Positions 19,026 to 35,291 of a stretch of 64,000 nt of DNA are shown here, in pieces; position 1 is the first letter of the stretch; every line of letters begins with the position of its first letter. The DNA comes from Parcubacteria group bacterium Gr01-1014_31. GTDB taxonomy: Bacteria; Patescibacteriota; Patescibacteriia; Buchananbacterales; GWA2-38-13. The stretch lies in assembly GCA_007376135.1 (NCBI GenBank), contig VMFR01000002.1:92870-156869 (forward strand), written 5' to 3'. Position numbers and translations under genes: made by a program. A model generated the notes under the pieces. It had not been told where the DNA came from. It saw only the letters and a program-made list of their open reading frames with translations, and ran no database searches.

Positions 19026-19431
19026 CATCGCAGAGCGCGTCGCCGTCAAACTCGCCCAGCTCTCCCCCGATATTCGGGAGTCGCAAGGGCCGCTGTGGCG
19101 CGCGATAAAGAACCAGTACACCCCGTTCAACCTGTTCTTCGGCCCGCCCTCCGACCCGCGCGTCGTGGCGGCGCTGGTCATCAAGGGGTTCATGTCGCTG
19201 CTGGGCATCTTGTTTTTGCTCTACGTGGTGTACGCGGGGTTCATGTGGATGACGGCCAACGGCGACGAGGAAAGGATCCGCAAGGCGAAATCCACCATCA
19301 CCACCGGCGCATTCGGGGTGCTGGTCATCCTGGCGGCGTACTCCATCGCCCAGTTCATCACCACGGCGTTCGGCTGCGCGACCGCCACCTACGGCGAGTG
19401 GTGCCTTTTCTTCAACAACCTGACGTGGTAG
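19021..19431 (+). CDS. divergent VirB2/TrbC-like pilin family protein without N-terminal signal peptide; paralog 9
   Basis: 136 aa. The conserved hairpin LLYVVYAGFMWMTANGDEERIRKAKSTITTGAFGVLVILAAYSIA is present, but the N-terminus MPIAERVAVKLAQLSPDIRES is not a signal peptide. C-terminal CATATYGEWC. Confidence 0.55.
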   Translation: MPIAERVAVKLAQLSPDIRESQGPLWRAIKNQYTPFNLFFGPPSDPRVVAALVIKGFMSLLGILFLLYVVYAGFMWMTANGDEERIRKAKSTITTGAFGVLVILAAYSIAQFITTAFGCATATYGEWCLFFNNLTW

Positions 19432-19446: not shown

Positions 19447-19477
19447 CGCCCCCGGAACGCTCCGGGGGTATTTTTTT
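19447..19477 (+). terminator. rho-independent terminator after pilin paralog 9
   Basis: CCCCCGGAACGCTCCGGGGG hairpin followed by TATTTTTTTG. Confidence 0.6.
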
Positions 19478-19511
19478 GTCTTCATCCACGGTAAGCTGAA
19501 CCCGCATCCTT

Positions 19512-21479
19512 ATGGCGACTCCCCCGCTGCTGCGAAACTGCCGCGACTCCCATGCCGGGCTCCTGCTCGCCGCTGCCGCCGCGCTCTGGCTGGCCGTGGT
19601 TTTTGTCGCCGCGCAGTGGAAGTACGCCAACCTCCGCTACACCGCGATGGACTTGGGCATCTTCACACAGGTCGTTGCCCGCAGCGCGGACGGCGATTGG
19701 TTTGGCAGCACCATCCACCCGCCGACGTACCTGGGCGACCACTTCAGCCCGGCGCTAGCCGTGCTCACGCTCCCCTACCGCCTGGTACCGTCGCCGCTGA
19801 CCTTGGTGTTCGCGCTGCAGCTTTCTTTGGCGTTGGGCGCCTGGCCGCTCTATCGTTTGGCGCGCACCGCCCTGCCGCCGCTGGGCGCGCTCGCCGTTGG
19901 CCTCGCCTACCTGCTTTCCCCGTTCACCCAGAACCTGGCGCTGTTTGAATTCCACTTCATCGCGTTCTCCGTGCCGGTCCTGCTCGCGGCGGCCAACACT
20001 TTTGCCAGAAAAAAACTGCCGGCGTTCTCCGGCTGGTGTTTGGCGGCCCTCCTCATCCGCGAGGACGTCGCGCTGGTGGTGCTCGGGTTCGCGGTGCTGG
20101 CGTTGCTCCAACGGCGGCCTTGGCGCTGGGTGCTCGTGCCCGGCGTGGCCGCCGCCGCCTGGCTGCCCGCGGCGCTAGTTATTATCCGCGCGGCCGGAGT
20201 AAGCGGCAGCTATAAATTTTTTGCCTACTACGCGTGGCTGGGCGACACGCCGGCAGCCATGCTGCAAACCATCTTCCTGCGGCCCTGGCGCTGGCTTGCC
20301 ATGCTGCTGCGGCCGCCAAACGTCATCACCGCGGCGGGACTGCTGTTGCCATTCGCGTTCCTGCCGCTGTTTTCCCCTGCCGCATTGGCGCTGGCCGCGC
20401 TTCCGGCGCTCCAAATGTTCCTGGGCGCGCCCGGCGGCGGCGACCTGGTGCTGCGCACCCAGTACAGCGCGCTGTTTTTGCCCGGGCTGTGGCTGGCGGC
20501 AATTTTGGCGATTCCCCGGCTGCCCCGCAGCAAACTGGCGGCGATCGTTGGTCGCCAGGGCGGACTGGCGATCGCGGTGGTAACGGCCGCCGTGGTCTAC
20601 GGCGGGCTGACGCTGGGGCCGCTGCCCGGCACCCTGCGGCTGATGGTCCGCCAAGGCTGGCAGCATGAGTCGGCACTGGCGCGACGCGCGCTGGCAGCCG
20701 CAATGCCCCAGACCGGCGGGGTTGCCGCCGCCTACCCTTTGTTGCCGCAGGTCGCCGGCCGCACCGCAACCGTCGCCAGTTTGAACTACGCGTTCATCGG
20801 CCGCCAGCAGCTCTCCACGCTCTCCTACGCGCTGCCCGCCGACATCGACTTCGTGCTGTTGGACGTGGAAGAATTCCTCACCTACCACCTGCAATACCGG
20901 ACGCACGTGCTATACCACGGCGACTATCCGACGGCCGCGGCCAACCTTCGCGCCGCGCTCGCAACCGGCAATTTCGGCATCACCCAGATAGCCGGTTCCA
21001 CCGTGCTGCTGGAACGGAACGCCTCCAGCACCCTGACGCTGGCAACCGTCCTGCCGGGAACCCCGGCGGACGTGCACGGAACTCCGCAGGAACTCGATGG
21101 CGGCGTGCGGTTCTTGGGCTACCGCGCAGGCCCGCCGGCGCCCGGGCCGATGCCGCCCGAACGCCAGCTGCCGCTGGTCCTGTACTGGTCCGTGAACAGC
21201 GTCCAGCCAACACCGCTCTACTGGCAGATGCTGGCAGACGGCAAACCCTGGGGCGCACTGCAGCCCCTCGGGAACGGCGTGCTGCCGGTCACGGACTGGC
21301 CCCAGTCCGCGGTCGTGGAAACCAGCACCTGGCTATGGCGGCCGACCGCTTCGACGCTGGCGCTGCAGGTGGTCGCCGTGAATTCCGGCGGGCTGTTCCT
21401 CGCCCTTGACCTTGCCTCCGAACTGCGGGTCACCAAAATGACGCCCGTGGGCGAACCGATACCTTTGGATGACCTGTGA
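19512..21479 (+). CDS. DUF2079-like polytopic membrane protein (often glycosyltransferase-associated)
   Basis: 655 aa. Multi-TM N-terminal half with DLGIFTQ...GDHFSPALAVLTLPY, recalled as the DUF2079 signature. Large C-terminal extracytoplasmic domain. Confidence 0.45.
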   Translation: MATPPLLRNCRDSHAGLLLAAAAALWLAVVFVAAQWKYANLRYTAMDLGIFTQVVARSADGDWFGSTIHPPTYLGDHFSPALAVLTLPYRLVPSPLTLVFALQLSLALGAWPLYRLARTALPPLGALAVGLAYLLSPFTQNLALFEFHFIAFSVPVLLAAANTFARKKLPAFSGWCLAALLIREDVALVVLGFAVLALLQRRPWRWVLVPGVAAAAWLPAALVIIRAAGVSGSYKFFAYYAWLGDTPAAMLQTIFLRPWRWLAMLLRPPNVITAAGLLLPFAFLPLFSPAALALAALPALQMFLGAPGGGDLVLRTQYSALFLPGLWLAAILAIPRLPRSKLAAIVGRQGGLAIAVVTAAVVYGGLTLGPLPGTLRLMVRQGWQHESALARRALAAAMPQTGGVAAAYPLLPQVAGRTATVASLNYAFIGRQQLSTLSYALPADIDFVLLDVEEFLTYHLQYRTHVLYHGDYPTAAANLRAALATGNFGITQIAGSTVLLERNASSTLTLATVLPGTPADVHGTPQELDGGVRFLGYRAGPPAPGPMPPERQLPLVLYWSVNSVQPTPLYWQMLADGKPWGALQPLGNGVLPVTDWPQSAVVETSTWLWRPTASTLALQVVAVNSGGLFLALDLASELRVTKMTPVGEPIPLDDL

Positions 21480-21536: not shown

Positions 21537-23153
21537 TCACTCGGCGACCCGGAACATCGTTCCGGCGGAATTTGCGAACACGGGGATCAACCCGGGAACG
21601 GTATCGGGCGGAACGGCCGCGGCGGCGCGGTCCAGAAATCCGTACCAGACGTACCGTGCGCCCGTACGCTTGAGCAGCGCGGCCCGAAAGGCTGGGTCGG
21701 AGGAAGTGTAGAATTGCTCCACCACCGGACGCTTGGCCGCGCTGTTGATGGTCTCGTCGCCGTGGCCATAGTACTGGGTCCTCGCGGTGTACGCTCCCAG
21801 CCACATCCCGCTGTCGTGGGCAGCCAAGATAATCTCCCCCGGTCGGATGTGTCCGTGCACCCAGTCGGCGGCGGCAAAAAAATCATCCGGGAAATAGTAG
21901 GAGGCGGGAAACTTCCGGTAGTACTGCAGGTCGCGGGCGGCAATGCCCAGCGGCGAACCCAGCAGCACGGCGGCGGCCAGAACTGCGGCGACGCTCACGC
22001 CCAGCCACCCGCCGCGCCGCATGACCCAGCGGAATACGGTAACGGCGGCCGGAGCGGCAATGATACTCAACGGGAACAACAGCCCCTGCAGGTAGCGCGC
22101 CTGGAATTGGCTGGGTAAGAGGGCCAGTACCGTGGCGGCGGCGAGCCACGCGCCGGCCCACCAGCGATGCGTGGTGGTCCGCGAAAAATACGTTCGCGCG
22201 CCGAACACGGCCAGCACCGCCACTGCGCCGAGCCCTACCAGGACATAGGGCAACGGCGGCAAGCGCGAAATGTTCTGCAGCGCCCGCGCGGCCGATACCG
22301 GGTCAACGGCCAGCAGCCACGCGTGATATACAAGCGAGCCGGCGACCGCCAGGAACAACGGCAGCAAATAGGGTGTTGCGGCCAGCGGCGCGCGACGCTC
22401 GTTGCGCCAGCGCAGCAGCAGCCAGCCGACGGGGACTGCCAACAGCGTCGGCCAATGGTAGGGATGAAAATTCAACAGCACCGCCGCGGCAATACCCGCG
22501 CTCCAGCCGGCGCGCCACGACCACTGCTCCGCGGCGCGAGCGGCAAGCAGCAGGGTACCGACCAAAAGCGCCCACGAAGCCACCAGGTGCGGCGACGATC
22601 CTAAACTGAGTATGGGCGAACTCCACGGCAGCCACAGGTCCAGGGGCCAGCGGTAACCCGCCCCGCGCTCAAGGTACTCGGCAGTGGGCAGGAACGGCGT
22701 GGCCCAGATGCCCACACCGCCCGATAGCGTGAGTGCGAACGCGGCCACGCGTTCCCACCGGTCGGTGAGGAACCACGCGATGCCGCGATACAGCACCGCC
22801 AGCAGCACCACACCCAGCAGCACGCGGCTGGCGTGGAAAGTCGCCGCAGGCGTGAGGCGAAACAACCGCCCCGCGGCGCCCAGCGCCAGCCACAGCACGT
22901 TCAATGTGCCGACCGGCTGAGGCTCGGCGGTAAAAATGTCGCGCAGCGTCAAGTTGCCATCCTCTATTTGGCGCAGGTAGCTGTAATAAACCGGCGGGTC
23001 GGCGGGCATGAGCGTCCGTACCCCGATGAAACGCGTGCCCGCAGGTGTTTGCAAAAATCCGTAGAGCAGCGACCCGTTGGCAACGATCAGCGCCAGCGCG
23101 CCGATGGCTACGGCGGCCCAAGCAAAACGATGCGGGGTGGCAACAGCAGACAT
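21537..23153 (-). CDS. polytopic membrane protein, putative GT-C-type glycosyltransferase (paralog of 23161..24801)
   Basis: 538 aa with at least 10 predicted TM helices. First loop YYSYLRQIEDGNLTLRDIFT parallels YVYWSYLWQARDGNLALTDLYT in the adjacent gene. Last gene of a nine-gene glycosylation operon. Confidence 0.4.
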   Translation of the reverse strand: MSAVATPHRFAWAAVAIGALALIVANGSLLYGFLQTPAGTRFIGVRTLMPADPPVYYSYLRQIEDGNLTLRDIFTAEPQPVGTLNVLWLALGAAGRLFRLTPAATFHASRVLLGVVLLAVLYRGIAWFLTDRWERVAAFALTLSGGVGIWATPFLPTAEYLERGAGYRWPLDLWLPWSSPILSLGSSPHLVASWALLVGTLLLAARAAEQWSWRAGWSAGIAAAVLLNFHPYHWPTLLAVPVGWLLLRWRNERRAPLAATPYLLPLFLAVAGSLVYHAWLLAVDPVSAARALQNISRLPPLPYVLVGLGAVAVLAVFGARTYFSRTTTHRWWAGAWLAAATVLALLPSQFQARYLQGLLFPLSIIAAPAAVTVFRWVMRRGGWLGVSVAAVLAAAVLLGSPLGIAARDLQYYRKFPASYYFPDDFFAAADWVHGHIRPGEIILAAHDSGMWLGAYTARTQYYGHGDETINSAAKRPVVEQFYTSSDPAFRAALLKRTGARYVWYGFLDRAAAAVPPDTVPGLIPVFANSAGTMFRVAE

Positions 23154-23160
23154 AGAAATA

Positions 23161-24801
23161 CTATTGCTGCGCCACGCGGTAAAGACGCACCGAGCCGTTA
23201 TCGTACACGCGGGTCAACTGCGGCAGCGCCTCCAGACCGGACCAATCATTGCCGACCTCGCGCGGGCCGGCGAACACGTGCGTCACTCCGTACCGGCGCA
23301 GCCAGGAGAGCTGCTGTTCCGGATTACGTGCCTGGAAAAACCACAGAAGAGCGACGCGCTTGGCCTCATCATCCAGCGTTTCAATGCCGTGGCCCGCAAC
23401 GACGCGTCGGCCGATGCGTCCTGGGATCAGATAACTCGTCAACGGGTGGGCGGCAATGACCGACGTTGCGCCCGTCATCGGGCGCAACGCAGTGATCGCT
23501 GCCAACTGGTCGCGTGGCCAGAACATCAGCTCGTGGCGTTCCCACATTAACCCGAGCTCGTTGGCAAGATTCGTCATAGGGGTGAAGCCAAAGAGCAGCA
23601 CGAACGCGACGGCGGGCAGCATCGGCAATATCCGGAGGGCTGCGGGGACGCCCGGCCACCGCTTGCTCATCCACGCCCAGACCGGAGGAAAACCGTAGAC
23701 CGACAGCAGCACCAGTGGCAACTGCAAACCGGTCAGGAGCCGGCGCTGAAAATCAAGGTTTGGAAAAAATACCAAGGTCAGCTGGGCAAAGAGCCAGATA
23801 CCGCACAACAACCACGGCAGTTGGCGCCACTCGCCAGTCCGACGGAGCCGCCAAAGCCCGGCTGCCGCACCGGGTACGAGCCAGCCGTAACCGATAATCA
23901 TCAAATACCAGGCTGGCGTGTACGCGACGTTCTGCGCCGCTCGGCCAGCAGTGACCGGGTCTACTCGCAACGCGTACGTATAGTAGGCGAGCACCGGCGC
24001 GGCCGCCATACCGACCAACACCACCTGCCGCACCACATCACCGCGCCAGCGACGGCTGACCAGCGAGACGGCTACGGCCCACGCTGACAATATCACGGCC
24101 ACGGTCGGCACGTGGAACGGGTGGAAACTGAACAGCCCCAACGCCGAGGCGGCGGCGACCGCTACCCAGCGCCAACGGGAATCCCGCGCGCCAACCAGCG
24201 TGGCCGAAAAAATAACTGCCATGAGCGTTACCGCGGCCAGCATGTGACCGGAATGCATCGCCGACAGAAAGACGTTGGATTCCGCGACCCACAGGTCCGG
24301 AGGCCAATGGTAGTACCCCCACTGATAAGGACCGGGGTGCAAGAACGGCAACAGGTAACCCGACCAGCCGCCGGCGAATACCGCCAGCAGCAGTGTCCAG
24401 CGCCGCTGGTCCGGCGTCAACGGGAATTGCCGGATCAACCACCACAGCGCTGCCAGCGTGAGTGGGATCATCGCGAGCCGCACGAGGTGGAACGTCAGGG
24501 AAACGGGTAATTGCAGCGAGGCTCCCAGCAGACCGGCGCCGCTCCAGAATGTATTGAGCATGGGGACCGCGGCGAGTTCCGTCGTATAGAGGTCCGTCAA
24601 CGCAAGATTGCCATCGCGCGCTTGCCACAGATACGACCAGTACACGTAGGTATCCCCGGAGGCGAACCCATGCAACCCAAGGTAACCAAGTTGGGGCGTT
24701 GCGCGCAGCCAGCCCAGCACGTACGGCAGGCTGGAAAGTACTGCCAGCGTAACGGCGACGCCAAGCAGGAAACGGCGATCAGACCATCTCTCCGAGAGCA
24801 T
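23161..24801 (-). CDS. polytopic membrane protein, putative GT-C-type glycosyltransferase (paralog of 21537..23153)
   Basis: 546 aa from MLSERWSDRRFLLGV (ATG complement 24799-24801). The longer ORF to 24951 would overlap the GT2 gene by 80 nt. Multi-TM with C-terminal soluble domain. Confidence 0.4.
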   Translation of the reverse strand: MLSERWSDRRFLLGVAVTLAVLSSLPYVLGWLRATPQLGYLGLHGFASGDTYVYWSYLWQARDGNLALTDLYTTELAAVPMLNTFWSGAGLLGASLQLPVSLTFHLVRLAMIPLTLAALWWLIRQFPLTPDQRRWTLLLAVFAGGWSGYLLPFLHPGPYQWGYYHWPPDLWVAESNVFLSAMHSGHMLAAVTLMAVIFSATLVGARDSRWRWVAVAAASALGLFSFHPFHVPTVAVILSAWAVAVSLVSRRWRGDVVRQVVLVGMAAAPVLAYYTYALRVDPVTAGRAAQNVAYTPAWYLMIIGYGWLVPGAAAGLWRLRRTGEWRQLPWLLCGIWLFAQLTLVFFPNLDFQRRLLTGLQLPLVLLSVYGFPPVWAWMSKRWPGVPAALRILPMLPAVAFVLLFGFTPMTNLANELGLMWERHELMFWPRDQLAAITALRPMTGATSVIAAHPLTSYLIPGRIGRRVVAGHGIETLDDEAKRVALLWFFQARNPEQQLSWLRRYGVTHVFAGPREVGNDWSGLEALPQLTRVYDNGSVRLYRVAQQ

Positions 24802-24871
24802 AGAAAATGGTGGGGTGTAAAACGTAAAGCGTGAAACCTGCAACGCAAATACACCGTACGCGTTCCACGTT

Positions 24872-25669
24872 TCAGGTTCCAGGTTCCACGCTCTGGGGCC
24901 GCTCCGACCGCAAGTGCCACACTTTCCAAAACGCCTCCACCATGATGGCAAGGTTGAACTTGGATTTGCCGTGTCGGCGCTCGGTGAAGGTGATGGGTAC
25001 CTCCGTCACGCGGTAACCGTGCCAGACCGCGCGGGCGGTCGTCTCGATCTGAAAATTATATCCCACGGAACTCAAATGGCCGTGAGTGATTGCCTCCAGC
25101 GCCTGGCGCCGGTAGGCCTTGAACCCGCCGGTCAGGTCGCGAATTCTCAGCCCCAGGACCGTTCGGGCATACCAATTGCCGAACCGACTGATGCTGCGGC
25201 GTAAAAACCCCCAGTTGACGATGCTGCCGCCGCGCACGTAGCGCGAGCCCAGCGCGACGTCGGCTCCCTGCTGCAGCGCGGAGATCAGCACGGGAATGAC
25301 CGCCGGGTCGTGGGAAAAATCCGCATCCATCTGCACGACCACGGATACATGCTGCAGGAGCGCCCAGCGGAAACCGTCCACGTACGCGGTCCCTAATCCC
25401 CCCTTGCCGGCACGATGCAGCACGTGGAGTTCGGACTGCCGCGCGGCAAGCTCATCGGCGAGCCTGCCGGTGCCATCCGGCGAATGATCGTCCACGACCA
25501 ATACCCGAAGGTTGGAAATTCCCAGCCCAAAAATCTGGCGCAGGAGCGGCTCCAGATTGCCGCGCTCGTTGTAGGTCGGGATGACCACGCACACGAGCGG
25601 GTGGACAGACGGACTATGAGCGATGTCTCTCTCGCGGGGTCCTCCAACGGAAATAAAATTAGTAGGCAT
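24872..25669 (-). CDS. polyprenol-phosphate (dolichol-phosphate-type) mannosyltransferase, GT2 family (Dpm1/Ppm1-like)
   Basis: 265 aa. CVVIPTYNERGNL, VLVVDDHSPDGT and DADFSHDP motifs of GT2 polyprenol-phosphate sugar synthases. Confidence 0.8.
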   Translation of the reverse strand: MPTNFISVGGPRERDIAHSPSVHPLVCVVIPTYNERGNLEPLLRQIFGLGISNLRVLVVDDHSPDGTGRLADELAARQSELHVLHRAGKGGLGTAYVDGFRWALLQHVSVVVQMDADFSHDPAVIPVLISALQQGADVALGSRYVRGGSIVNWGFLRRSISRFGNWYARTVLGLRIRDLTGGFKAYRRQALEAITHGHLSSVGYNFQIETTARAVWHGYRVTEVPITFTERRHGKSKFNLAIMVEAFWKVWHLRSERPQSVEPGT

Positions 25670-26990
25670 ATAACCGCATAATCATCCACATACCATAAAA
25701 TCCGCTAATAGTGAAAAAACCCGTACCGCCCACGAGCAGCCAGCGGCCCCAATCCGCACGGCGGAAAGCAAGCTGCCAACCAGACATCAGCAGGATGAGT
25801 GCCGCGACAATGAGCGGCATCAGGTAGCGGCCGTCCGGCTGGTGCAACACCGCAAAGTTATGACGCACCACGGCGGCAAAGAGGGCAAGGCACGCCGCCA
25901 GTGCCGAACCCAGTAACCAACGCCGCGACCGTCCCTCCGGAGAATCGACGCCGGGAGTGCGACGAAAGAGAAAACGCACAAACCCAGCACACCCGCCCAC
26001 GACGAATAAAAGATACCAAGAAAGGAACGGCGAGGGAAAAACGATATCATAACTATAGGCGTTAAAGCTGCTGAAGAATATCTGCCCGAAAAAACCCATC
26101 CAGTGCAACGGCTGCCGCCAGTCCAAATGAACGATCGGGTATGTTGACCCGACGCGCAACCCCGACTGGACAGCCTCGATGAAGGAATAGTCGGGCGGCA
26201 CCCAAGCGATGCCACTGCCGACCAATATCGGAATGAATGCGCGGCCATAGGTGAGGTACTGATGCACGTAAAACGCCGTCGGCACCAGGAGCCAAACGGC
26301 AACCGCAGCGGCGATCGGCCCGGCCACGGAACGGCCGCGCGTCATCAGCAACCAGAGGCAATACCCGGCCGCCAGAATATAGCCACTATAACCGTTCTCA
26401 CGGCCGAGGAACACGAGTCCCAGCGCCGCGCCAAGCGCAACGGATGTGCCCCAATGCAATGTCCCGCGGCGATGCGCGAGACTTAGGACGTACAGTACCA
26501 CGGTCACCGCGAATATCGTGAAGGCGTCGGAGTTCAAATAAGTCCCCAGTCCAAGCACTTTGGGGTGGAGCGCCACCAGCGTCGCGAGCGTGGCGGCGTG
26601 CAGCGGTTTATCGGGCCAAAGATTACGTACTATGAAGTACGCAACCACGATGGTCATGGCACCAAGGAACGCCGATCCGAAACGGATCTTGACGAACAAC
26701 GGCAAGCCACCGGGAAAGGCATGCGCAACCCAGGCGTTCAGACGATAGCCAAAAATCGGTTTCACCACGAAATGCGGCACCCAACCCTCCTGCCCATATC
26801 GCGGAGCATGATTCTTCTGGTACAACTCGGTCATCACCTGATAACGGTACCGCTCGTCCGGACCGGCATCGAATGGTAACGCTAGGGCGAGAGAAAACCG
26901 CAATGCTAACGACGTAACCACTACAGCCGCCAGCCACCACCGCGCGAGCACCAGCGGCGGAAACGGCAGCAATTTGGAAATACTAGCCAT
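25659..26990 (-). CDS. GT-C fold glycosyltransferase, ArnT/PMT (GT39/GT83)-like polytopic membrane protein (paralog of 26983..28302)
   Basis: 443 aa with 11 or more TM helices. First periplasmic loop PFDAGPDERYRY carries the Asp-Glu motif typical of GT-C enzymes that use polyprenol-phosphate sugars. Confidence 0.5.
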   Translation of the reverse strand: MASISKLLPFPPLVLARWWLAAVVVTSLALRFSLALALPFDAGPDERYRYQVMTELYQKNHAPRYGQEGWVPHFVVKPIFGYRLNAWVAHAFPGGLPLFVKIRFGSAFLGAMTIVVAYFIVRNLWPDKPLHAATLATLVALHPKVLGLGTYLNSDAFTIFAVTVVLYVLSLAHRRGTLHWGTSVALGAALGLVFLGRENGYSGYILAAGYCLWLLMTRGRSVAGPIAAAVAVWLLVPTAFYVHQYLTYGRAFIPILVGSGIAWVPPDYSFIEAVQSGLRVGSTYPIVHLDWRQPLHWMGFFGQIFFSSFNAYSYDIVFPSPFLSWYLLFVVGGCAGFVRFLFRRTPGVDSPEGRSRRWLLGSALAACLALFAAVVRHNFAVLHQPDGRYLMPLIVAALILLMSGWQLAFRRADWGRWLLVGGTGFFTISGFYGMWMIMRLYAY

Positions 26991-28302
26991 AGAACGTCAA
27001 TAATTTCCAAAAGCTATACCCACCACTCATAATAACAAAGCTCACACCGAACGCCACCCAAAATCCTCGCGACTTTCCCAATATCGCCGAATACCAACCC
27101 ATGACTCCCCACACGGCACCCGGGACCGCCAACGGCAGAAGGTATCGGCCCTGAGGTTGAAAGATGACAGAAAAATTATGCCGCAGGACCGCGGCCGCGA
27201 GCGTAAGGATGGCGACAATGGAACCAGCGAGCAACCAACGTCGATGGTCAACGCCGCCGACGGATAGAGACGCGGGTAGCGAAGACAGCCGGCGCCAGCC
27301 GGCAACACTCGCACCCACCATCAGTACGAAAAGTGCATACCAATGGAACGGCAGCCAGATATCCATATAGCCGAAGAGCCCGAAGGCGCTGGGCACCAGC
27401 CATGCTCCAAAGATGGCCCAATGCTTTGGGTTGGACCAGATCAAGTGGAACACCGGGTAATCGAACCCTCCTACTGGCAGGCGGGCAAAGGCATCGGCCA
27501 CCGACCAGCCCGGCGGCACCCAGGCAACGCCACTCCCCCCCAACAACGGCAAGAAGGCATGGCCGTAGACCGACTGCTGCTGCGCGTAGAACAGCACGGG
27601 GAACGCCAGCGCCACCACGGCGGCCGCGAGCAGTTCGCAGCGGTAACGACGCCTCTGCGCAATGAACGGCAGGAGTGCAGCGGCGGCCAGCAGGAATCCA
27701 GCGTACCCGTTCTCACGCCCGAGGAACACCAGCCCCAGCGCCCCGCCGATGCCCACGGCCAGCGGCAGCCTTAGGCGACCGTCGCGGATCGCCAGCGCCA
27801 GCAGCCAGAATAACAGCGCATTCGCGGCGATAGTATACGCGTCGGCGTTCAAATACGAAGAAAGGAAAACCAGCTGCGGGTAGAACGCCAGCACCGCAGC
27901 GATCGCCAGGGCGCGCCCCGCGGAGGCAGGCCACAGCGCCCGCGCTGCAGCATACCCGGCCACGACGGCGGCAACGCCTGCCAGCACCGACCCGAGGCGC
28001 AATTTGATATAGAGCGGCAGCGCCAGAGGGACGAAGTGTGCGGCCAGCGCATTCAGCCGGTAGGCCAGCATCGGTTTCACGACGTAGTGGTGCCAGGTCT
28101 CCGTGCCGTACCTGGGCGTACGGCCCGTCGCATAGATCTGCGCGGTGACCGGATACCGACGCCGTTCGTCGGGACCGCCATCATAGGGCAAGACCAGCGC
28201 CAGCGCCAACCGCAGCAGCAGCGCGGCGGCCACCAGTGTCGCCACCAGCCAACGCGCCGTCGTTGCCGTCGGCGCAGGCGCGAAATAAGACGCGGCGACC
28301 AT
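26983..28302 (-). CDS. GT-C fold glycosyltransferase, ArnT/PMT-like polytopic membrane protein (paralog of 25659..26990)
   Basis: 439 aa from MVAASYFAPAP (ATG complement 28300-28302). Loop motif PYDGGPDERRRYP. TM architecture parallels the adjacent paralog. Confidence 0.5.
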   Translation of the reverse strand: MVAASYFAPAPTATTARWLVATLVAAALLLRLALALVLPYDGGPDERRRYPVTAQIYATGRTPRYGTETWHHYVVKPMLAYRLNALAAHFVPLALPLYIKLRLGSVLAGVAAVVAGYAAARALWPASAGRALAIAAVLAFYPQLVFLSSYLNADAYTIAANALLFWLLALAIRDGRLRLPLAVGIGGALGLVFLGRENGYAGFLLAAAALLPFIAQRRRYRCELLAAAVVALAFPVLFYAQQQSVYGHAFLPLLGGSGVAWVPPGWSVADAFARLPVGGFDYPVFHLIWSNPKHWAIFGAWLVPSAFGLFGYMDIWLPFHWYALFVLMVGASVAGWRRLSSLPASLSVGGVDHRRWLLAGSIVAILTLAAAVLRHNFSVIFQPQGRYLLPLAVPGAVWGVMGWYSAILGKSRGFWVAFGVSFVIMSGGYSFWKLLTFYG

Positions 28303-28307
28303 ACGAT

Positions 28308-29069
28308 TCACGCCGGTCGGACGCTCGCGCGTCGGAATTGCGGCGAACGGGAAATACCCAGGCACGTCAACCCGTACCGCCCCATCGTGCGGATGATGTC
28401 CAGCCCATAGCGGACGCTACCGGAAAATCCGACCGAGGACGCATCCTTGAAATACCGCGTCGGAATGGGGATCTCCTGGATGTGGAACCCGTGCACCACG
28501 AGTTGCACAATAATCTCCGTGTCAAAAACGAAACCGTCCGAGTTCAGGTGCAGAGGCACGGTGTTCAGCACGCGCGCGCTATAGGCGCGGAATCCCGAGT
28601 GGTACTCGGTCAGCCGCAGCCCCAGACACCAATTCTCAAATACCGTCAACGCAATGTTGGGATAGTACTTCCAGCGCGGCATGCCGCCACTGAGGGCCGC
28701 GCCGCGGTAAATCATCCGCGAGCCGAACACCGCGTCGCACTGGCCGTTGATGATGGGAGCGACCAACTGCGGAATGGCGTGCGGGTCGTACTGGTGGTCG
28801 GGATGCACCATCACCACCACGTCGGCGCCGAGTTTGAGCGCTTCCGCGTAGCAGGTCTTTTGGTTGCCGCCGTAGCCGCGGTTGTTCGGATGCACCACGG
28901 TGCGTAGTCCCGAGGAACGGGCCAGCGCCGCGGTCCCGTCGGTGGACGCGTCATCCACCAGCACGATGTCATCCACCGTGTCGCGCGGGATGTCATGGAG
29001 CGTCTGCCGCAGCGTCTTTTCCGCGTTGTAGGCCGGCAGTACGGCAATGACCTTTGGGTGCGCGGGCAT
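28308..29069 (-). CDS. GT2-family glycosyltransferase (polyprenol-phosphate sugar synthase-like)
   Basis: 253 aa. VIAVLPAYNAEKTL...VLVDDASTDGT...HPDHQYDP. Confidence 0.75.
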   Translation of the reverse strand: MPAHPKVIAVLPAYNAEKTLRQTLHDIPRDTVDDIVLVDDASTDGTAALARSSGLRTVVHPNNRGYGGNQKTCYAEALKLGADVVVMVHPDHQYDPHAIPQLVAPIINGQCDAVFGSRMIYRGAALSGGMPRWKYYPNIALTVFENWCLGLRLTEYHSGFRAYSARVLNTVPLHLNSDGFVFDTEIIVQLVVHGFHIQEIPIPTRYFKDASSVGFSGSVRYGLDIIRTMGRYGLTCLGISRSPQFRRASVRPA

Positions 29070-29072
29070 AGC

Positions 29073-30338
29073 TCAGGAAGTTTGCGCCGGAGCCGGCCGC
29101 CGCACCCAGGCGGTAGCGAGCAGCGCAATAATCACCCAGACGTAATTCTCGTTGAAGAACCGCGACAGCCACCAGAACGCCAGCAGCAGCGCAGCGCTAC
29201 CGGCCAACGCGCGGGAAAGGTCGTTGTCGCGCCGCTGCCACCACAACAACAAGGAAAGCAAGGGAATGACGACCATCAATTGAAGCATCCCGTAAGGGAA
29301 ATATGCCCGCGGCGACGATGGCCAGCCCAGCAGCTGCAGCAGCACCGACAGCCCAAGCCCGTAGATCGGATAGCTGGTCGGCAGCAAGCCGGCCGGGTAG
29401 CGATAGACGTCATCCCAGAACGCGGACCAGTTCCAGAGCGCAAAGGGGGCCGTAATGATGGCGGCGACCGCGGGCAGCAGCCACAATTGCCGCCGCTGTC
29501 GCGGATGTTCCCACCACCAATATGCCGCCAGGAACGGAATGACGAGCCACGCCGTCTGCTTGGAGGTGGCCGCCAGCGCCAGCGCAACGGCGCCGGCACT
29601 GCCGCGCCCGGCGGCGAACGCCGCGGCCGCGGCCACCAAGAATGCCAGCACGAACGTATCGCTGGTTCCCATGGTCACGGCGGCAACCGCGAAAGGATTG
29701 GCCAACAGCACGACGAGGTACGCCAGACGGTCCTGCTTGCGGCGCGGCAGCGTCCAGGCAGCGGCGGCAAGCAACGCCAGCGCCGCCAAGTGGGTGATGC
29801 GCTGGTCGTAGAACCCCAGGATCGGCTCGCTTACCATCGCCACGCCCGCGGATGCGACCGTATAGAACGGCAGCGTGATGTAGTGGAAGAGCGCGGGGTT
29901 GGCAAACCAAGTATTGCTGGATGCATCGTAGAATTGCCCGCCCTGCCACTGCTGGAGCGGCGTGCCGAGGTAGTCCACCGCGTAGAAATTACTACCGGCG
30001 CGCAGTTCCCGCACGCCCTCCTCGATCAATATGGCGTTGTCGTGCACGAACGCGACCGGGCCGGAGGCGCGGCGCAGCGCGACGAATGCGACCGTCGTCA
30101 CCCCCAGCAGCAGCACGAGCGCCGCACCGACGGCGATACCGCGCACCCGCGAAGACCATGACCGCGCCGCCAGATCGGCAACCAACGCGACGAGCGCGCA
30201 CAGCCAAAAGAGGTTGGCGATCGCGGTCCACACCGGCAACGGCAATTCTGCGCGCAGGCCAACGATGTCCAGCGCGCCCAGCAACAGCAAAGCCGCGGTT
30301 TCCGGCGCGATGATGCGGGTGCTGGTAATGGCGGGCAT
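29073..30338 (-). CDS. polytopic membrane protein, putative GT87/DUF2029-like mannosyltransferase
   Basis: 421 aa, about 12 TM helices, no large soluble domain. Size and topology resemble PimE/DUF2029-type polyprenol-phosphate-mannose-dependent transferases. Family assignment is tentative. Confidence 0.35.
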   Translation of the reverse strand: MPAITSTRIIAPETAALLLLGALDIVGLRAELPLPVWTAIANLFWLCALVALVADLAARSWSSRVRGIAVGAALVLLLGVTTVAFVALRRASGPVAFVHDNAILIEEGVRELRAGSNFYAVDYLGTPLQQWQGGQFYDASSNTWFANPALFHYITLPFYTVASAGVAMVSEPILGFYDQRITHLAALALLAAAAWTLPRRKQDRLAYLVVLLANPFAVAAVTMGTSDTFVLAFLVAAAAAFAAGRGSAGAVALALAATSKQTAWLVIPFLAAYWWWEHPRQRRQLWLLPAVAAIITAPFALWNWSAFWDDVYRYPAGLLPTSYPIYGLGLSVLLQLLGWPSSPRAYFPYGMLQLMVVIPLLSLLLWWQRRDNDLSRALAGSAALLLAFWWLSRFFNENYVWVIIALLATAWVRRPAPAQTS

Positions 30339-30340
30339 AC

Positions 30341-31081
30341 TTATCCTTTGGCGGCGGGCGGATCTTGCCGCAGCTGGCGGCGCAAGCGCAGCACGTCCTT
30401 CAAGTAGGTGATGCTGAGAGAAAAAATATTGACCTTGCTCACGCGGCCAGGCGGCTCGTGCCAGCGCACCGGGATCTCTTTGATGCGGTACCCCGCCACC
30501 CCTGCCCGAACGACCAGCTCGGTATCAAAGAACCAGCCGCCGTGCCGTATCTGGGGCAGCAAGGTGTCGCGCACGCGGCGGCTGATGGCCTTGAAGCCGC
30601 ACGGAGCATCCTGCACGGTGATGGGTACCAGGCTCGCCAGCACCCAACGGTAGCCGCGCGACGCCGTCCGGCGCAACCAATCGCGCGCGACCACGGCGCC
30701 CGGCGCGTAGCGCGACCCGACCGCCACGTCGTACCCCTCATGGGCAACCGCCCCGACCACCGCCGGGAGCGCCGAGAGGTCCGTCGCCAGGTCGGAATCC
30801 ATGAACAGATACACATCCGCATCCACTGCGCGCCACCCCGCCGCGATGGCATTACCCTTCCCTCGTTGGGGCACGGCCTCATACCGCACCCGCGCGTCGG
30901 TCGCCGCCAGGCCTTTCACCTGCGCTGCCGTATCGTCGGCGGACCCGTTGTCGGCCACCACCAGCACCGTGTCCCAATCGGGCAGCGATGCGGCGGCTGC
31001 CGTCAACACGGCGCGGCTGTTGGCGATGATGATTGTCCCCTCATCCAGGGCCGGGATGACGATGGCCAATTTTTGCTTCAT
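30341..31081 (-). CDS. GT2-family glycosyltransferase (Dpm1-like)
   Basis: 246 aa. LAIVIPALDEG...VVADNGSADDT...DSDLATD. Confidence 0.75.
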   Translation of the reverse strand: MKQKLAIVIPALDEGTIIIANSRAVLTAAAASLPDWDTVLVVADNGSADDTAAQVKGLAATDARVRYEAVPQRGKGNAIAAGWRAVDADVYLFMDSDLATDLSALPAVVGAVAHEGYDVAVGSRYAPGAVVARDWLRRTASRGYRWVLASLVPITVQDAPCGFKAISRRVRDTLLPQIRHGGWFFDTELVVRAGVAGYRIKEIPVRWHEPPGRVSKVNIFSLSITYLKDVLRLRRQLRQDPPAAKG

Positions 31082-32685
31082 AGGGCGGGTACGGGCGACA
31101 CTTCAAAAATAGTAGCCTCGGGGTCGCGGTAGACTTCGCGGAAGCCCGGATTGCCGGCGACCAGCTTGCGCATGGACTCCTGCTCTTTGCCGACGAACAC
31201 GAACTGAGCGCCGAAGCGTTGAGCCACGATCTCGTACAGCCGAACGCGCTCACGGGCGGTGGTCACTCGTTCCCATTCACCATAGCGGACACGGTCGAAC
31301 CGGTACATGAATGTCGGGTCCAGGCCGACCAGGTAGCGGCTCTGGCTATTGTAGTACCACAACATCGGGAAATCGTCCCAGTCGCTGTGGAAGACCAGCG
31401 CATCGGGCGGCGTGTTGGCCCGCAGCCACGCCGAGGCCGCGGCAAACCGGGTCAGCGGGATGCCGTCGCGAAATGCGCCGCGCACGCTGGAAACGTCGCG
31501 CACCACCAGGTAGGGCACCATCAGCAGCGGCAGCACCACGGCCGCCAGGAACAATTTTTGCTCACGCAGGAACGCTTTCAATTCGTTCCAAAACGGCTGC
31601 AGCGGCTGGCCTGCGACGCAGCCACGCAGCGCATCGGCGGAAAAGAGGATGGAGATCGGCACGAGGTACTCCACATTGCGGCGCGACCGCAACGTCAAGG
31701 CGTAGAGCAGCGCCGTCGCCAGCAGCAGGAATCCCGTTCGCGGGGCTTGCCGCCGCCACGTCAGGACATAGAGCGTCAACCCCACGATCGCAACGAACGA
31801 GGCTAAGCTGGTGGCCGCCAGCAACTCCAGCGCGGGGTAGGGATACCACTCCCCGCCTACGCCGATGGTTTCCTGATAGTTGATGACGGCGATCTGCACG
31901 ATCTGATTCCAATAGAACTGGAGGTGGTAGGGAAAATACGGGTGCAGCAGCAGCGCCAGCAAGATGCCGCCCATGACCGCGCCCAAGCTCCTGATCTGCC
32001 GCCGGAGCGCAGCCCGCCGCTCCCCCGCGGGCGCGAGCCCAACCAGCGCGAAGGCGTACAACCCGGCCAGCACCACCATGAGCGGCCAGCCACCGTAGAG
32101 CCAGACGTAGAAAAAACTGGTTGCGGCCAGCCACCGCAGGCGCGCGCGCGTCAGCAGTATGAGCCAGACAAACAGCACCGCGAACGCGAGCGGCTGCGCT
32201 TTCGCGAGGTTGGCGCGGAACACGAACGGACTGGTGGCCAGTAGTAGCGCCGTTGCATAGCCGGCCCGGGGCACGCCCCAGGTCCGCAGCAGCGCGTAGA
32301 ACGCGGTCACCGCCGTGGCGAAGAACGTGACGGTCGCCAATTTCAGACCCAGCAGCGGCGGCAAGAGCCGCACCCACGGAATGAGCAGCACGTGGTAGAG
32401 GAATTGATGATCCGCAAAGCTGTCACGTAGTACCGTGAACTGCAGCCACGGGAACTGGGTGAAGATGCCGCGCTCCGAGATGAGGAGCGCCATCTTGGCG
32501 TGGTAGAAAGAATCCGGGTCGGCGAAGGTCGGCGTGGCCTGCACCCAGACGGACAAGAGTCCGGCAACGGTAAAAACCGTCAGGTACGCCAACATCGGCC
32601 GTCGCGCCAAGTGACGGGCGAATGCGTGCCGCAGCGCGGCGATGGCGGCAACCAACGGATGGCGGGCAACCCAGGCAAATGGCAT
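31078..32685 (-). CDS. polytopic membrane protein with C-terminal soluble domain, putative GT-C-type glycosyltransferase; first gene of the operon
   Basis: 535 aa. N-terminal multi-TM region with DPDSFYH in the first loop and a roughly 150-aa C-terminal extracytoplasmic domain. Overlaps the next gene by 4 nt. Confidence 0.4.
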   Translation of the reverse strand: MPFAWVARHPLVAAIAALRHAFARHLARRPMLAYLTVFTVAGLLSVWVQATPTFADPDSFYHAKMALLISERGIFTQFPWLQFTVLRDSFADHQFLYHVLLIPWVRLLPPLLGLKLATVTFFATAVTAFYALLRTWGVPRAGYATALLLATSPFVFRANLAKAQPLAFAVLFVWLILLTRARLRWLAATSFFYVWLYGGWPLMVVLAGLYAFALVGLAPAGERRAALRRQIRSLGAVMGGILLALLLHPYFPYHLQFYWNQIVQIAVINYQETIGVGGEWYPYPALELLAATSLASFVAIVGLTLYVLTWRRQAPRTGFLLLATALLYALTLRSRRNVEYLVPISILFSADALRGCVAGQPLQPFWNELKAFLREQKLFLAAVVLPLLMVPYLVVRDVSSVRGAFRDGIPLTRFAAASAWLRANTPPDALVFHSDWDDFPMLWYYNSQSRYLVGLDPTFMYRFDRVRYGEWERVTTARERVRLYEIVAQRFGAQFVFVGKEQESMRKLVAGNPGFREVYRDPEATIFEVSPVPAL

Positions 32686-33680: not shown

Positions 33681-34181
33681 GTGGTACGGGGTGAACGCAC
33701 CGTGCTGGGGATCGACCCGGGGCTGGCAACGACCGGCTTCGGCGTGCTGACGGTTGCCCCCGGCACCATCTCAGCCCAAGCCTTCGGCGTCATCCGAACC
33801 CCGGCGCACCGCCCGGATACCGAGCGCCTCGTTTCTATCCAGCGCGAACTCGAAGCGCTGATTTCTCGCTACCGACCCGACCTCGTGGCCGTCGAAAAAC
33901 TTTTCTTCAACACCAACACCACCACCGCGATGGCCGTCTCGCAGGCGCGCGGGGCGGTACTGGCGGTCTGCGGTGCGGCGCACCTGCCCCTCCGGGAGTG
34001 CACGCCGCTCGAGGTCAAGCAGGCGGTGACCGGCTACGGCCGCGCCGACAAAGGCCAGATGCAGCGGATGGTCGCGCTGCTGCTGAAACTCAAGGAAATC
34101 CCGCGCCCGGATGATGCGGCCGACGCGCTGGCCGTGGCCATCTGCGGCGCGCAGACCAAAGTTTGGGGAGAGAACCGCTGA
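33681..34181 (+). CDS. ruvC: crossover junction endodeoxyribonuclease RuvC
   Basis: 166 aa. VLGIDPGLATTGFGVL catalytic Asp region and overall RuvC length. Confidence 0.85.
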   Translation: MVRGERTVLGIDPGLATTGFGVLTVAPGTISAQAFGVIRTPAHRPDTERLVSIQRELEALISRYRPDLVAVEKLFFNTNTTTAMAVSQARGAVLAVCGAAHLPLRECTPLEVKQAVTGYGRADKGQMQRMVALLLKLKEIPRPDDAADALAVAICGAQTKVWGENR

Positions 34182-34185
34182 ATCT

Positions 34186-35244
34186 ATGTCGTACCGCATC
34201 GCCTTGCTCGCCACGCCTTGGGAAGCGGTACCGCCCCCGAAGTACGGCGGCACGGAACTGATCGTCGCCAACCTCGCGGATGAACTCACCCGCCGCGGCC
34301 ATACCGTCACGGTGTTTGCCACCGGCGACTCGCGTCCCGCTGGCCGCCTGGCGGCGGTGTTCCCCCGCGCGCTCTACCGCGACGGCGTCCCCTGGAACGA
34401 CACGCTGCGCCCGCTGCAACACGTCGCTGCCTGTTTCACCCGCGCCCGCGAGTTCGACCTCATCCACAACCATGCCAACTACTTCGGCCTGCTGTTCGCG
34501 AACCTGGTGCCAACCCCGGTGGTCACCACCTACCATGGCGACTTTGTGACCGCGGAAAAGATCCCGGAAAAACGGCACCTGCTGGAGGCGTTCCGTCGCG
34601 CTCCGTTCGTTGCCATCAGCTGGCGCCAACGCGCCCTGGCAAAAACCCGCCTCAATTTCGTCGGTACCGTTCACAACGGCATCGCCATTGAACAGTTCCC
34701 TTTTTCGCCGCGGCCCGGCAACTACCTGTGCTGGCTAGGACGCATCACCGAAAAAAAAGGGATCCTTGAAGCCATCACGGTCGCCCGTCGGCTGCGCCTG
34801 CCGCTGAAGATCGGCGCCAAGATCGACCCGGTCGACCGCGCGTTCTTCAAACACCGCGTGGAGCGCCGCATCGACGGCAAACATATCCAATACCTGGGAG
34901 AGCTGGACCACCGCGGAAAAACCCGGCTGCTGAAAAGGGCGCTCGCGCTCTTGAACCCCATCACCTGGGAGGAACCATTCGGCCTGGTCATGGCGGAGGC
35001 GATGGCCTGCGGCACGCCGGTTATCGCCTTCCCCCGCGGCGCGGCTCCCGAGATCGTTGCCGATGGAGTGACGGGCTACCTGCCCACCACGGTGGACCGC
35101 ATGGTGGCCGCGGTCAAACGCATCCACCATATCCGGCGTAGCGCCTGCCGTGCCCGCGCAGCGCGATACTTCAGCCGGGAAGCGATGACTGACGGCTACG
35201 AGAAGATCTACGCGCGAGTACTGCGACGGGAAAAAGGCCGATAA
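34186..35244 (+). CDS. GT4-family glycosyltransferase (retaining, GT-B fold)
   Basis: 352 aa from MSYRIALLATPWEAVPPPKYGGTELIV. C-terminal EX7E-type region EEPFGLVMAEAMACGTPVIAF. Start placed at ATG 34186, just after the ruvC stop. Confidence 0.8.
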   Translation: MSYRIALLATPWEAVPPPKYGGTELIVANLADELTRRGHTVTVFATGDSRPAGRLAAVFPRALYRDGVPWNDTLRPLQHVAACFTRAREFDLIHNHANYFGLLFANLVPTPVVTTYHGDFVTAEKIPEKRHLLEAFRRAPFVAISWRQRALAKTRLNFVGTVHNGIAIEQFPFSPRPGNYLCWLGRITEKKGILEAITVARRLRLPLKIGAKIDPVDRAFFKHRVERRIDGKHIQYLGELDHRGKTRLLKRALALLNPITWEEPFGLVMAEAMACGTPVIAFPRGAAPEIVADGVTGYLPTTVDRMVAAVKRIHHIRRSACRARAARYFSREAMTDGYEKIYARVLRREKGR

Positions 35245-35291
35245 CTCAACACCCTGTTCCCCTCCGCCTAATTCCTATCTTTCACCGCGAT

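Follow-up and report, generated by a model that had tools for sequence, protein, structure and literature searches.

In one form of extracytoplasmic glycosylation, a carrier-sugar synthase of glycosyltransferase family 2 (GT2) works with a polytopic transferase of the GT-C fold, a mechanism class that is already known. It is represented by the GtrA/GtrB/GtrC, CsbB/GtcA/YfhO, ArnC/ArnT and Ppm1/Pmt systems and by PgfS/PgfM1/PgfM2 of Streptococcus mutans, in all of which a GT2 of the Dpm1/ArnC type stands beside a polytopic GT-C protein. Here we describe a locus of this kind in a 64-kb stretch of DNA (the window; contig VMFR01000002.1) from Parcubacteria group bacterium Gr01-1014_31, a genome of the candidate phyla radiation (CPR), or Patescibacteria, that was assembled from a metagenome. 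The source organism is one of the ultra-small groundwater bacteria. The locus is an 11-kb operon of nine genes, g1 to g9, numbered from the operon 3' end so that g9 is the 5'-most gene.

The operon resembles the systems mentioned above in its organization and in the position of the GT-C motifs in predicted external loops. It differs in its scale, which is new, with three synthases and six or seven GT-C proteins in one place. Unlike GtrB, ArnC and CsbB, the synthases of the window have no membrane anchors, and unlike in the GtrA/GtcA systems, no GtrA/GtcA-type flippase was found among the scanned open reading frames (ORFs) of the window. Three of the GT-C proteins belong to families outside Pfam and NCBIfam. 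These two families, one very large and STT3-like, are also new, as is the lineage-conserved architecture of the cassette beside VirB2-like pilin arrays. The original prediction, made from the DNA letters, was that of a lipid-linked extracytoplasmic glycosylation system, and it is supported as far as sequence and fold reach. We consider it likely that the locus carries out extracytoplasmic glycosylation from polyprenyl-phosphate-linked sugar donors and produces a glycan that varies between lineages.

A second system for comparison is the Agl pathway of Haloferax volcanii (AglJ/AglD, the dolichyl-phosphate mannose-dependent AglS, and AglB). Both loci combine several Dpm1-like GT2 enzymes with an STT3-like protein and GT-C proteins of the type that uses dolichyl-phosphate (Dol-P) sugars. 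Unlike the Agl pathway, the locus studied here has a bacterial host, its synthases g3 and g6 score 82-91 bits with AglJ against a cut-off of 325, and no link to an S-layer or to sequons was seen.

The pilin genes beside the operon also have described counterparts. In 383 CPR assemblies, 441 VirB2-like pilin arrays were reported, often near dnaA (10.1101/2025.01.22.634366). The array of the window is similar to these sets of 2-11 divergent PF18895/VirB2-like genes near the origin. According to earlier work as cited in the same study, the pilin array of Ca. Southlakia epibionticum, a cultivated relative, is essential. That study describes no neighbouring GT-C/GT2 cluster, and the single match to 'glycos' in it refers to glycosidases. 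A study of the pili of Saccharibacteria termed glycosylation in the group unexplored (PMC11623550). Literature searches gave nothing relevant on DUF2079, on GT-C proteins of the CPR, on oligosaccharyltransferases or N-glycosylation in Patescibacteria, or on mannosyltransferases in Parcubacteria.

Composition of the operon

According to the ORF calls, nine tightly packed genes occupy positions 21537-32685 on the minus strand (Table 1). They encode three GT2 enzymes (g3, g6, g8) and six polytopic GT-C proteins (g1, g2, g4, g5, g7, g9). The nine co-oriented genes had been predicted correctly, and the division into six GT-C and three Dpm1-like GT2 proteins was borne out by Pfam, PDB profile and Foldseek matches. 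Overlaps of 4, 8 and 11 nt are found at g9/g8, g5/g4 and g4/g3, respectively. The remaining junctions have gaps of 2-7 nt, except for 70 nt between g3 and g2, assuming that g2 starts at the ATG at 24801. Of two junctions that had been given as overlaps, the one at 31078/31081 indeed overlaps by 4 nt, whereas 28302/28308 is a 5-nt gap. The tight packing is consistent with a single transcript. A scan of the operon area for sigma-70 promoters performed no better than on shuffled sequence.

For two genes the start needed consideration. The longest ORF of g2 opens at TTG 24951 and g5 has an alternative start at GTG 28365; read from these starts, g2 and g5 would extend 80 and 58 nt, respectively, into the genes upstream. 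The internal ATGs at 24801 (g2) and 28302 (g5) are the putative starts and agree better with the lengths of the orthologues. The g9 and g1 products are 100% identical to proteins G01um101431_644 and G01um101431_636, respectively, and an exact-sequence look-up of g4 found no record. Because dnaA and dnaN are located at 49-52 kb of the window, the locus lies near the replication origin.

All three synthases passed the Pfam threshold for Glycos_transf_2 (E-values of 2.1e-30 for g3, 2.2e-20 for g8 and 1.8e-20 for g6). For each of them, the best match among solved structures was the Dol-P-mannose synthase of Pyrococcus furiosus (5mlz), with E-values of 3.3e-38 (g3), 6.5e-10 (g8) and 2.3e-6 (g6). 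The next PDB matches were ArnC for g3 and g8 (7e-10 for g8) and glucosyl-3-phosphoglycerate synthases for g6. In the DxD region the motifs are MDADFSH (g3), MDSDLA (g8) and HPDHQYD (g6). The best NCBIfam match of g3 and g6 was AglJ, at the low scores given above (E-value 9.5e-26 for g6). None of the three synthases reached an NCBIfam equivalog cut-off (AglJ, ArnC, PgfS, PpgS, Dol-P-hexose transferase). Since all scores are far below these cut-offs, the sugar of g3, g6 and g8 cannot be named. No hydrophobic or transmembrane (TM) segment was found in any of the three. Human DPM1 also has no membrane anchor, and we liken the window synthases to DPM1 rather than to GtrB or ArnC.

The six GT-C proteins fall into different groups. 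Protein g4 scores above the Pfam cut-offs for both PMT (36.2 bits; cut-off 22.7) and PMT_2 (34.3 bits; cut-off 26.1), and the PMT_2 match of g5 (E-value 9e-5, 23.2 bits) is just short of the gathering score of 26.1. They form one of the two tandem paralogue pairs that had been recognized (42% identity, E-value 2e-81), the other being g1/g2 (29% identity, E-value 5e-42). The Asp-Glu loop motifs noted earlier, PFDAGPDERYRY in g4 and PYDGGPDERRRYP in g5, are present, with D41 and D45-E46 invariant across five orthologues. The acidic DE loop after the first TM helix (TM1) is like that of the PMT and ArnT enzymes of families GT39 and GT83, from which g4 and g5 differ by being short (~440 aa) and by lacking MIR or large periplasmic domains. 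PDB sequence searches with g4 and with the g4/g5 profile gave only noise, as did those with g9 and with the g9 profile; the matches were an antibody chain, centaurin and SecE.

For the window g7 itself there was no Pfam match at E ≤ 0.01. Its orthologues and paralogues match GT87 in 19 of 24 cases (best 3e-14) and ALG3 in six of 24, and the family profile found GPI (glycosylphosphatidylinositol) mannosyltransferase 1, PIG-M, in the PDB at 4.7e-7. The resemblance of g7 to GT87/PimE and PIG-M thus comes through profile matches of its orthologues, with the window protein below the Pfam thresholds. Residue D100 of g7, an acidic residue of the first external loop that is predicted to face outward, is invariant.

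The family classification assigned all membrane proteins of the operon to GT-C and none to transporter families. The description 'PMT/ArnT-like' in the original prediction holds for g4 and g5 only. Proteins g9 and g1/g2 form a separate, uncurated superfamily that is STT3-like. The operon comprises three members of this superfamily, two PMT_2-like proteins and one GT87-like protein.

The g9 and g1/g2 families

Protein g9 matched no Pfam or NCBIfam family. We searched for its relatives with a word-indexed search, then with HMMER in 1.84 billion cluster representatives, and then in GTDB species genomes. The word-indexed search gave 581 proteins at E ≤ 0.001; the best 120 of these have no Pfam domain, and the few with a source name are called 'hypothetical'. 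With HMMER, 3,596 clusters at 50% identity were found at E ≤ 1e-3 and 1,559 at E ≤ 1e-30, and the scan of GTDB genomes confirmed 346 g9 loci. Nearly all informative record titles refer to Kerfeldbacteria, Buchananbacteria, Falkowbacteria, Uhrbacteria, Parcubacteria and, once, a Microgenomatus, and the family is found almost only in Patescibacteria.

About twenty GTDB records with the same CPR-type locus are titled 'uncultured Gammaproteobacteria bacterium' (among them related loci L007, L022, L023, L028, L029, L036, L039 and L043). These records include an 886-kb 'chromosome' (OZ246416.1), and one other record is titled 'Vicinamibacterales'. We suspect that these are probably mislabelled or mis-binned Patescibacteria.

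Conserved motifs were derived from an alignment of 40 sequences (g9 numbering). The N-terminal part contains ADPDSFYH, with D56 and D58 nearly invariant, and DHxFLYH, with an invariant D92 and with H98. The middle part has FRxNLAK (R157, K162), NYQxxIGVGGEWYPY (E279, W280) and SRRNVEY (R336, E339), and the C-terminal part HSDWD(E/D)FP (D435, W436, D437) and GLDPTF (D456). The AlphaFold2 model obtained with this alignment has a predicted local distance difference test score (pLDDT) of 95 and a predicted template modelling score (pTM) of 0.93. The helix pattern of the model and the positive-inside rule suggest that the invariant acidic and basic residues are all in outward-facing loops.

Comparison of the g9 model with the PDB by Foldseek gave 24 matches at E ≤ 1e-3, all of them GT-C proteins. 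Eukaryotic STT3 was at the top (E-values of 1.8e-11 to 2e-10), with a TM-score on the query (TMq) of 0.64-0.69. Further matches were AglB of A. fulgidus (5e-9), PglB of C. lari (5e-8), DPY19 (8e-7), ALG12, ArnT (6e-6) and AftD, and PMTs appeared only at ~0.1. The catalytic subunits STT3, AglB and PglB, especially the minimal archaeal AglB-S, thus provide the best structural match of both g9 and g1. Common to these enzymes and to g9 and g1 is a small α/β domain after the last TM helix. With the STT3-type oligosaccharyltransferases (OSTs), g9 may further share three features: the DP-x3-Y-[HR] type of motif behind TM1, a Glu within a long external loop, and W-D following a β-strand. Neither sequence nor profile comparison gave significant similarity to these enzymes. 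By a manual count from the model, g9 has about 11 TM helices where they have 13; it shows no evident DxD in external loop 2 (EL2) and no evident DK/MI motif, and has WWDYG reduced to DWD(E/D)F. Its gene context also differs, as it suggests monosaccharide-phosphate-lipid donors.

The fold matches raise the possibility that g9 is a true OST, which would transfer a pre-assembled lipid-linked oligosaccharide en bloc to Asn of secreted proteins, as in the N-glycosylation pathways of archaea or eukaryotes. The GT4 enzymes encoded nearby would then assemble the oligosaccharide, and the GT2 and other GT-C proteins would finish it in the manner of AglJ/AglD/AglS or ALG3/9/12. The presence of five GT4 genes just across YebC/RuvC fits such a pathway, and so does AglJ as the best NCBIfam match of g3 and g6, though well below its cut-off. 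We nevertheless consider an OST quite unlikely. None of the 40 g9-family members matched Pfam STT3 (PF02516), even at E ≤ 10, and the g9 family profile found no OST in the PDB. With yeast STT3 (718/718 residues identical to 6c26_A) and C. lari PglB (as deposited, 3rce_A) as references, hhalign gave the g9 profile probabilities of 1.2% and 5.4%, respectively, neither of which is significant. The PglB alignment was discarded, as its register was inconsistent with that of the STT3 alignment.

The STT3 alignment, also of low confidence, is collinear along the whole of g9, which speaks for an OST, and it was used solely for examining motif collinearity, as a lead. In this alignment ADPDSFYHAK is within three residues of STT3 FDPWFNYRAT, and by eye D-P-x3-Y-[HR]-A is common to both. 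Residue R157 pairs with R159 of STT3, R336 is within ~2 residues of R404, and E279 (GVGGEW) pairs with E350 (SVSE). Furthermore, W436-D437 pairs with W517-D518 of WWDYG, after a similar helix (F..A..WL..N). In the g9 family W436-D437 is invariant and directly follows a β-strand, while the full WWDYG is absent. The EL2 segment that carries DxD, DxE or DxH (SYDNEA in STT3) apparently reads NLAKAQ in g9, with the invariant R157 and K162 and no acidic pair, and no DK or MI motif was seen; both points argue against an OST.

The genetic context also speaks against en-bloc transfer. The scanned ORFs of the window included neither a phosphoglycosyl transferase nor a flippase, and the GT4 block of relatives includes soluble glycogen-type and glycosidase-like genes. 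The most frequent immediate neighbour of g9 is the monosaccharide-carrier synthase g8, which favours a single-sugar transferase similar to PMT, DPY19, ArnT or AglS. Because of the Pfam result, the lack of an OST among the PDB profile matches and the different register with PglB, g9 was not placed in GT66. We call it STT3-like in its predicted fold, with possibly equivalent motifs.

Proteins g1 and g2 also matched no Pfam or NCBIfam family, and only a DUF6541 match below gathering was seen for g2 (1.3e-6). A homologue search with the g1/g2 alignment returned eight known proteins and one marginal match (E-value 3.6e-6, 14% of the query). Few relatives were found through the word index, so that only 8 sequences were available for the AlphaFold2 model of g1, which has a pLDDT of 75.5. 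Foldseek gave 23 PDB matches at E ≤ 1e-3, again all GT-C, with STT3 (2.3e-9), DPY19 (4.6e-9), AftA, AglB and PglB among them. The g9 and g1 models both reached a Foldseek probability of 1.00 to STT3, AglB, PglB, DPY19 and AftA. A separate match was obtained for the C-terminal domain of g1, to the C-terminal globular domain of AfAglB-S2, a minimal AglB (3vu0; E-value 0.02, probability 1.00).

The kinship of the two families was apparent from profile-profile comparison. With alignments built from related loci, hhalign gave a probability of 96.9% (E-value 1.3e-10) for the g1/g2 family against the g9 family. At relaxed settings the alignment is nearly full length, has its motifs in collinear order and pairs R353 with R335/R336 and HDS with HSD. 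Residue D52, which is invariant in g1/g2 and is an acidic residue of the first external loop with a predicted outward orientation, is matched to ADPDS of g9; it falls a few columns from D56, where the alignment confidence is low. These profiles show that the g1/g2 and g9 families are homologous; g1/g2 are fast-evolving paralogues of g9.

It is very unlikely that g9 and g1/g2 are polymerases, ligases or scaffolds with a GT-C fold, as Wzy, O-antigen ligase, PIG-U and EpsG might suggest, and not transferases. PIG-U, the GT-C-fold subunit U of the GPI transamidase, is among the weaker fold matches of g9 (E-value ~1.6e-2). In contrast, the near-invariant Asp after TM1, the Glu in a long external loop and the Arg/Lys residues correspond to the catalytic pattern of GT-C enzymes, and the genes are interleaved with those of carrier-sugar synthases.

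Conservation of the locus and candidate acceptors

To compare gene order, the ORFs of 83 related loci were classified by phmmer with the window proteins as queries. The recurring order is YebC(-), g9(+), variable cassette(+), DUF2079(-), pilin array(-), extracellular solute-binding protein (SBP)(-) and GalU(-), and the architecture is kept across at least 80 species. Among the 56 loci in which the sequence downstream of g9 is 9 kb or longer, a g1/g2-type gene is present in 39, a GT2 gene in 37, DUF2079 in 34 and the pilin array in 33; at least six further loci end in DUF2079 at the flank limit. Examined as a refutation test, the adjacency of pilin array and operon turned out to be kept in distant relatives (these 33 loci). 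YebC is upstream of g9 in 64 of 76 loci.

Counts of direct neighbours over all loci confirm this order. The pairs found most often are g1/2 then DUF2079 (31), DUF2079 then pilin (26), pilin then SBP (25) and g9 then g8 (21), the latter making g8 the commonest immediate neighbour of g9. They are followed by SBP then GalU (15), g3 then g1/2 (14), g8 then g3 (13) and g9 then g7 (10). The cassette ranges from zero genes, with g9 directly abutting DUF2079 or pilins in L069, L074, L076 and L078, to the nine-gene form. This form, which includes g4/g5, is confined to the window and its closest relatives (L003-L005, L007), and the window locus is the largest version observed of a locus conserved across many Patescibacteria. 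The locus behaves as a variable glycan island between conserved flanks. The cassette between g9 and DUF2079 differs by lineage, as in O-antigen modification and capsule loci, which implies a variable surface glycan.

In the mechanism that we propose, g3, g6 and g8 would act at the inner membrane face, where each loads polyprenyl phosphate with one sugar taken from a nucleotide sugar, as their family suggests. The GalU at the locus could supply UDP-glucose and is a plausible source of this donor. A flippase, which is a postulated step, would carry the lipid-phosphate sugars across the membrane. Judging from fold and motifs, the six GT-C proteins, and probably the DUF2079 protein, would then transfer the sugars to an extracytoplasmic acceptor. 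Protein g9 may be the core or priming transferase, being STT3-like, nearly always present at the locus and often directly before g8, and g4/g5, g7 and g1/g2 may extend or decorate the glycan.

As acceptors, exposed surface proteins would be preferred, and the adjacent VirB2-like pilins in the first place. The pilins are the obvious candidate since their adjacency is conserved and g9 is in direct contact with pilin genes in some loci. By analogy with VirB2, the tails of VirB2-like pilins are taken to be exposed on the filament. The last eight residues of the pilins contain 27% Ser/Thr, and the other proteins encoded at these loci 10.5% (p ~1e-19 by Mann-Whitney test, with the relatedness of orthologous tails uncorrected).

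The Ser/Thr-rich tails of loci L011-L082 and the window are often also rich in Asn. Examples are ...VANTTANVTTS and ...VVTQTNKVTT, and in the window ...SSLVNATT and ...FFNNLTW.

A number of observations weigh against glycosylation by this mechanism or against pilins as its target. In the pilins as a whole, N-X-S/T sequons show no enrichment (z = 0). A sequon occurs in 23% of the pilin tails and in 4-5% of controls, yet the tails have the reversed motif at a similar frequency (22 vs 27 for the forward motif). Given this similarity and the orthology of many tails, the excess of sequons there reflects an Asn/Thr-rich composition and not a sequon signal. With related sequences inflating the counts as well, sequon enrichment was rejected as evidence for the acceptor. 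The pairing of GT2 with GT-C proteins is deduced from their adjacency alone, the sugar, donor and acceptor are candidates only, and the flippase and phosphoglycosyl transferase are missing among the scanned ORFs, as mentioned above. About 40% of the loci with full flanks lack a pilin array within 10 kb. Housekeeping genes (YebC/RuvC, GalT, ROK, PBP1A) are part of the synteny block too, and the block is near dnaA, so the adjacency of the pilins may reflect conserved gene order and not function. Since YebC, GalU, SBP, GalT and PBP1A are syntenic too, we propose the pilin target only tentatively.

The acceptor could instead be an envelope polymer, i.e., a teichoic-acid-like polymer, a wall polysaccharide or a glycolipid, modified in a CsbB/GtcA/YfhO-, GtrABC- or ArnC/ArnT-like manner, with the pilin adjacency being incidental near the origin. 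This is a serious rival because PBP1A, GalT, ROK and YebC are in the block and a sulfatase-domain enzyme follows g9 in one relative. In that distant relative (L001, a 922-kb contig), the gene directly after g9, at 11552-13702 (+) and in place of the GT-C cassette, encodes 716 aa with a Sulfatase and an SGSH_C domain; we take the product to be LtaS/EptA-like, which hints at a link to an envelope polymer. GalU is part of the same conserved block, many GT-C_A enzymes act on lipids or glycans, with ArnT, AftA, AftD and Emb among the fold matches, and the pilins show no sequon-specific signal. We still regard an envelope polymer as possible rather than probable. In fold, g9 and g1 come closest to the protein-modifying STT3, AglB, PglB and DPY19, with ArnT and the Aft enzymes ranking lower, g1 ends in a domain like that of minimal AglB, and no gene for synthesis of a teichoic-acid backbone was seen in the window.

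The preference for surface proteins can be extended to a more specific proposal, in which the g9 family would be a Patescibacteria-confined bacterial offshoot of the STT3/AglB lineage. Together with g1/g2 and the Dpm1-like synthases, it would glycosylate exposed VirB2-like pilin termini or other surface proteins, and the variable cassette would provide lineage-specific glycoforms that tune host attachment or phage evasion in these episymbionts. This proposal is speculative and, taken as a whole, unlikely to be correct. If glycosylation of pilins or other surface proteins is true, the locus encodes a new bacterial protein-glycosylation system, and to our knowledge the pilin would be the first glycosylated pilin of the type IV secretion system (T4SS) type. 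If g9 proved to be related to OSTs, it would inform the question of how STT3-type enzymes evolved in bacteria. Host recognition by Patescibacteria, which live attached to other microbes and have genomes of ~1 Mb, is probably decided by their surface molecules; in a genome of this type, 11 kb are spent on the locus. The locus also points to concrete residues (D56, E279 and W436-D437 of g9) and to the pilins as a candidate substrate.

Flanking genes

Table 1. Position and assignment of the operon genes and of flanking features in the 64-kb window.
Feature	Position	Strand	Description
GalU	11943-12821	+	Putative UTP-glucose-1-phosphate uridylyltransferase, from reading of the translation
SBP	12806-14188	+	Putative extracellular solute-binding protein, from reading of the translation
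T4SS_pilin array	14198-19431	+	Nine genes, all above the PF18895 gathering score; VirB2/TrbC-like
Pilin gene 1	14198-14869	+	
Pilin gene 2	14988-15395	+	
Pilin gene 3	15508-15903	+	
Pilin gene 4	15912-16319	+	
Pilin gene 5	16323-16727	+	
Pilin gene 6	16732-17148	+	
Pilin gene 7	17160-17543	+	
Pilin gene 8	17540-17986	+	
Pilin gene 9	19021-19431	+	
Intrinsic-terminator-like hairpin	19448-19479	+	9-bp stem, 7 G-C pairs, T-run; after the last pilin gene, upstream of DUF2079
DUF2079 protein	19512-21479	+	655-aa polytopic membrane protein; PF09852, 4.5e-49; convergent with the operon
g1	21537-23153	-	538-aa GT-C; small C-terminal globular domain; fast-evolving g9-related family
g2	23161-24801	-	546-aa GT-C; g1 paralogue; g9-related superfamily
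g3	24872-25669	-	265-aa GT2; most Dpm1-like of the three synthases; no TM segment
g4	25659-26990	-	PMT/PMT_2 (GT39/GT83-like) GT-C; loop motif PFDAGPDERYRY
g5	26983-28302	-	PMT_2-like GT-C; g4 paralogue; loop motif PYDGGPDERRRYP
g6	28308-29069	-	253-aa GT2; Dpm1/AglJ-like; no TM segment
g7	29073-30338	-	421-aa GT-C; GT87/PIG-M/ALG3-like (GT-C_B) type
g8	30341-31081	-	246-aa GT2; predicted polyprenyl-phosphate-sugar synthase; no TM segment
g9	31078-32685	-	535-aa polytopic GT-C; conserved locus anchor; STT3/AglB-like predicted fold

The convergent DUF2079 gene had been recognized correctly. Comparison of the g1/g2 family with DUF2079 by hhalign gave a probability of 70%, and the DUF2079 protein is probably a further GT-C-like protein. 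The 3' end of the operon (21537) is 57 nt past the DUF2079 stop. The distance to the pilin array is 2.1 kb, with DUF2079 in between, and not 100 nt as originally given. The predicted array itself exists; its members are not type IV pilins but T4SS pilins. The scanned ORFs of the window contained no VirB4, no T4SS ATPase and no further part of a T4SS machinery.

The first gene of the array is longer than the others and encodes 223 aa, with a Cys-rich N-terminal region (…HCCCDVEFERC…) preceding the T4SS_pilin domain, so that its product may be a tip pilin or otherwise specialised. A 238-aa ORF on the opposite strand (18067-18783, -), located between pilin genes 8 and 9, has a lipoprotein-like signal (…LAAAFGC…) and no Pfam family. 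Apart from the hairpin after the last pilin gene, the area has no convincing terminator.

The genes divergent from g9 include YebC, RuvC, ROK and PBP1A. Across YebC/RuvC lies a block (34111-43745, +), likewise divergent, of five GT4 genes and genes for an APH-type kinase, a 620-aa protein of no Pfam family and a GalT/HIT-like protein. It is conserved in the close relatives L003, L004, L007 and L036, and its counterpart in L001 has GH57/GH15/GT5 genes, taken as glycogen-type. The GT4 block could be involved in storage-glycan metabolism or be the cytoplasmic arm of the same pathway. The 620-aa ORF (40912-42774) was considered as a seventh GT-C protein or a ligase and rejected, as it has one hydrophobic segment and no profile similarity to GT-C families, and looks soluble.

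At the other side of the window, positions 1994-10378 form a neighbourhood of metal and envelope-stress genes, unexpected in a genome so reduced. Encoded there are a multicopper oxidase, a P-type ATPase, a DsbA-like protein and, as a pair, a BlaR1/M56 peptidase and a BlaI-type repressor. The GC content falls to 47% in the first 2 kb of the window.

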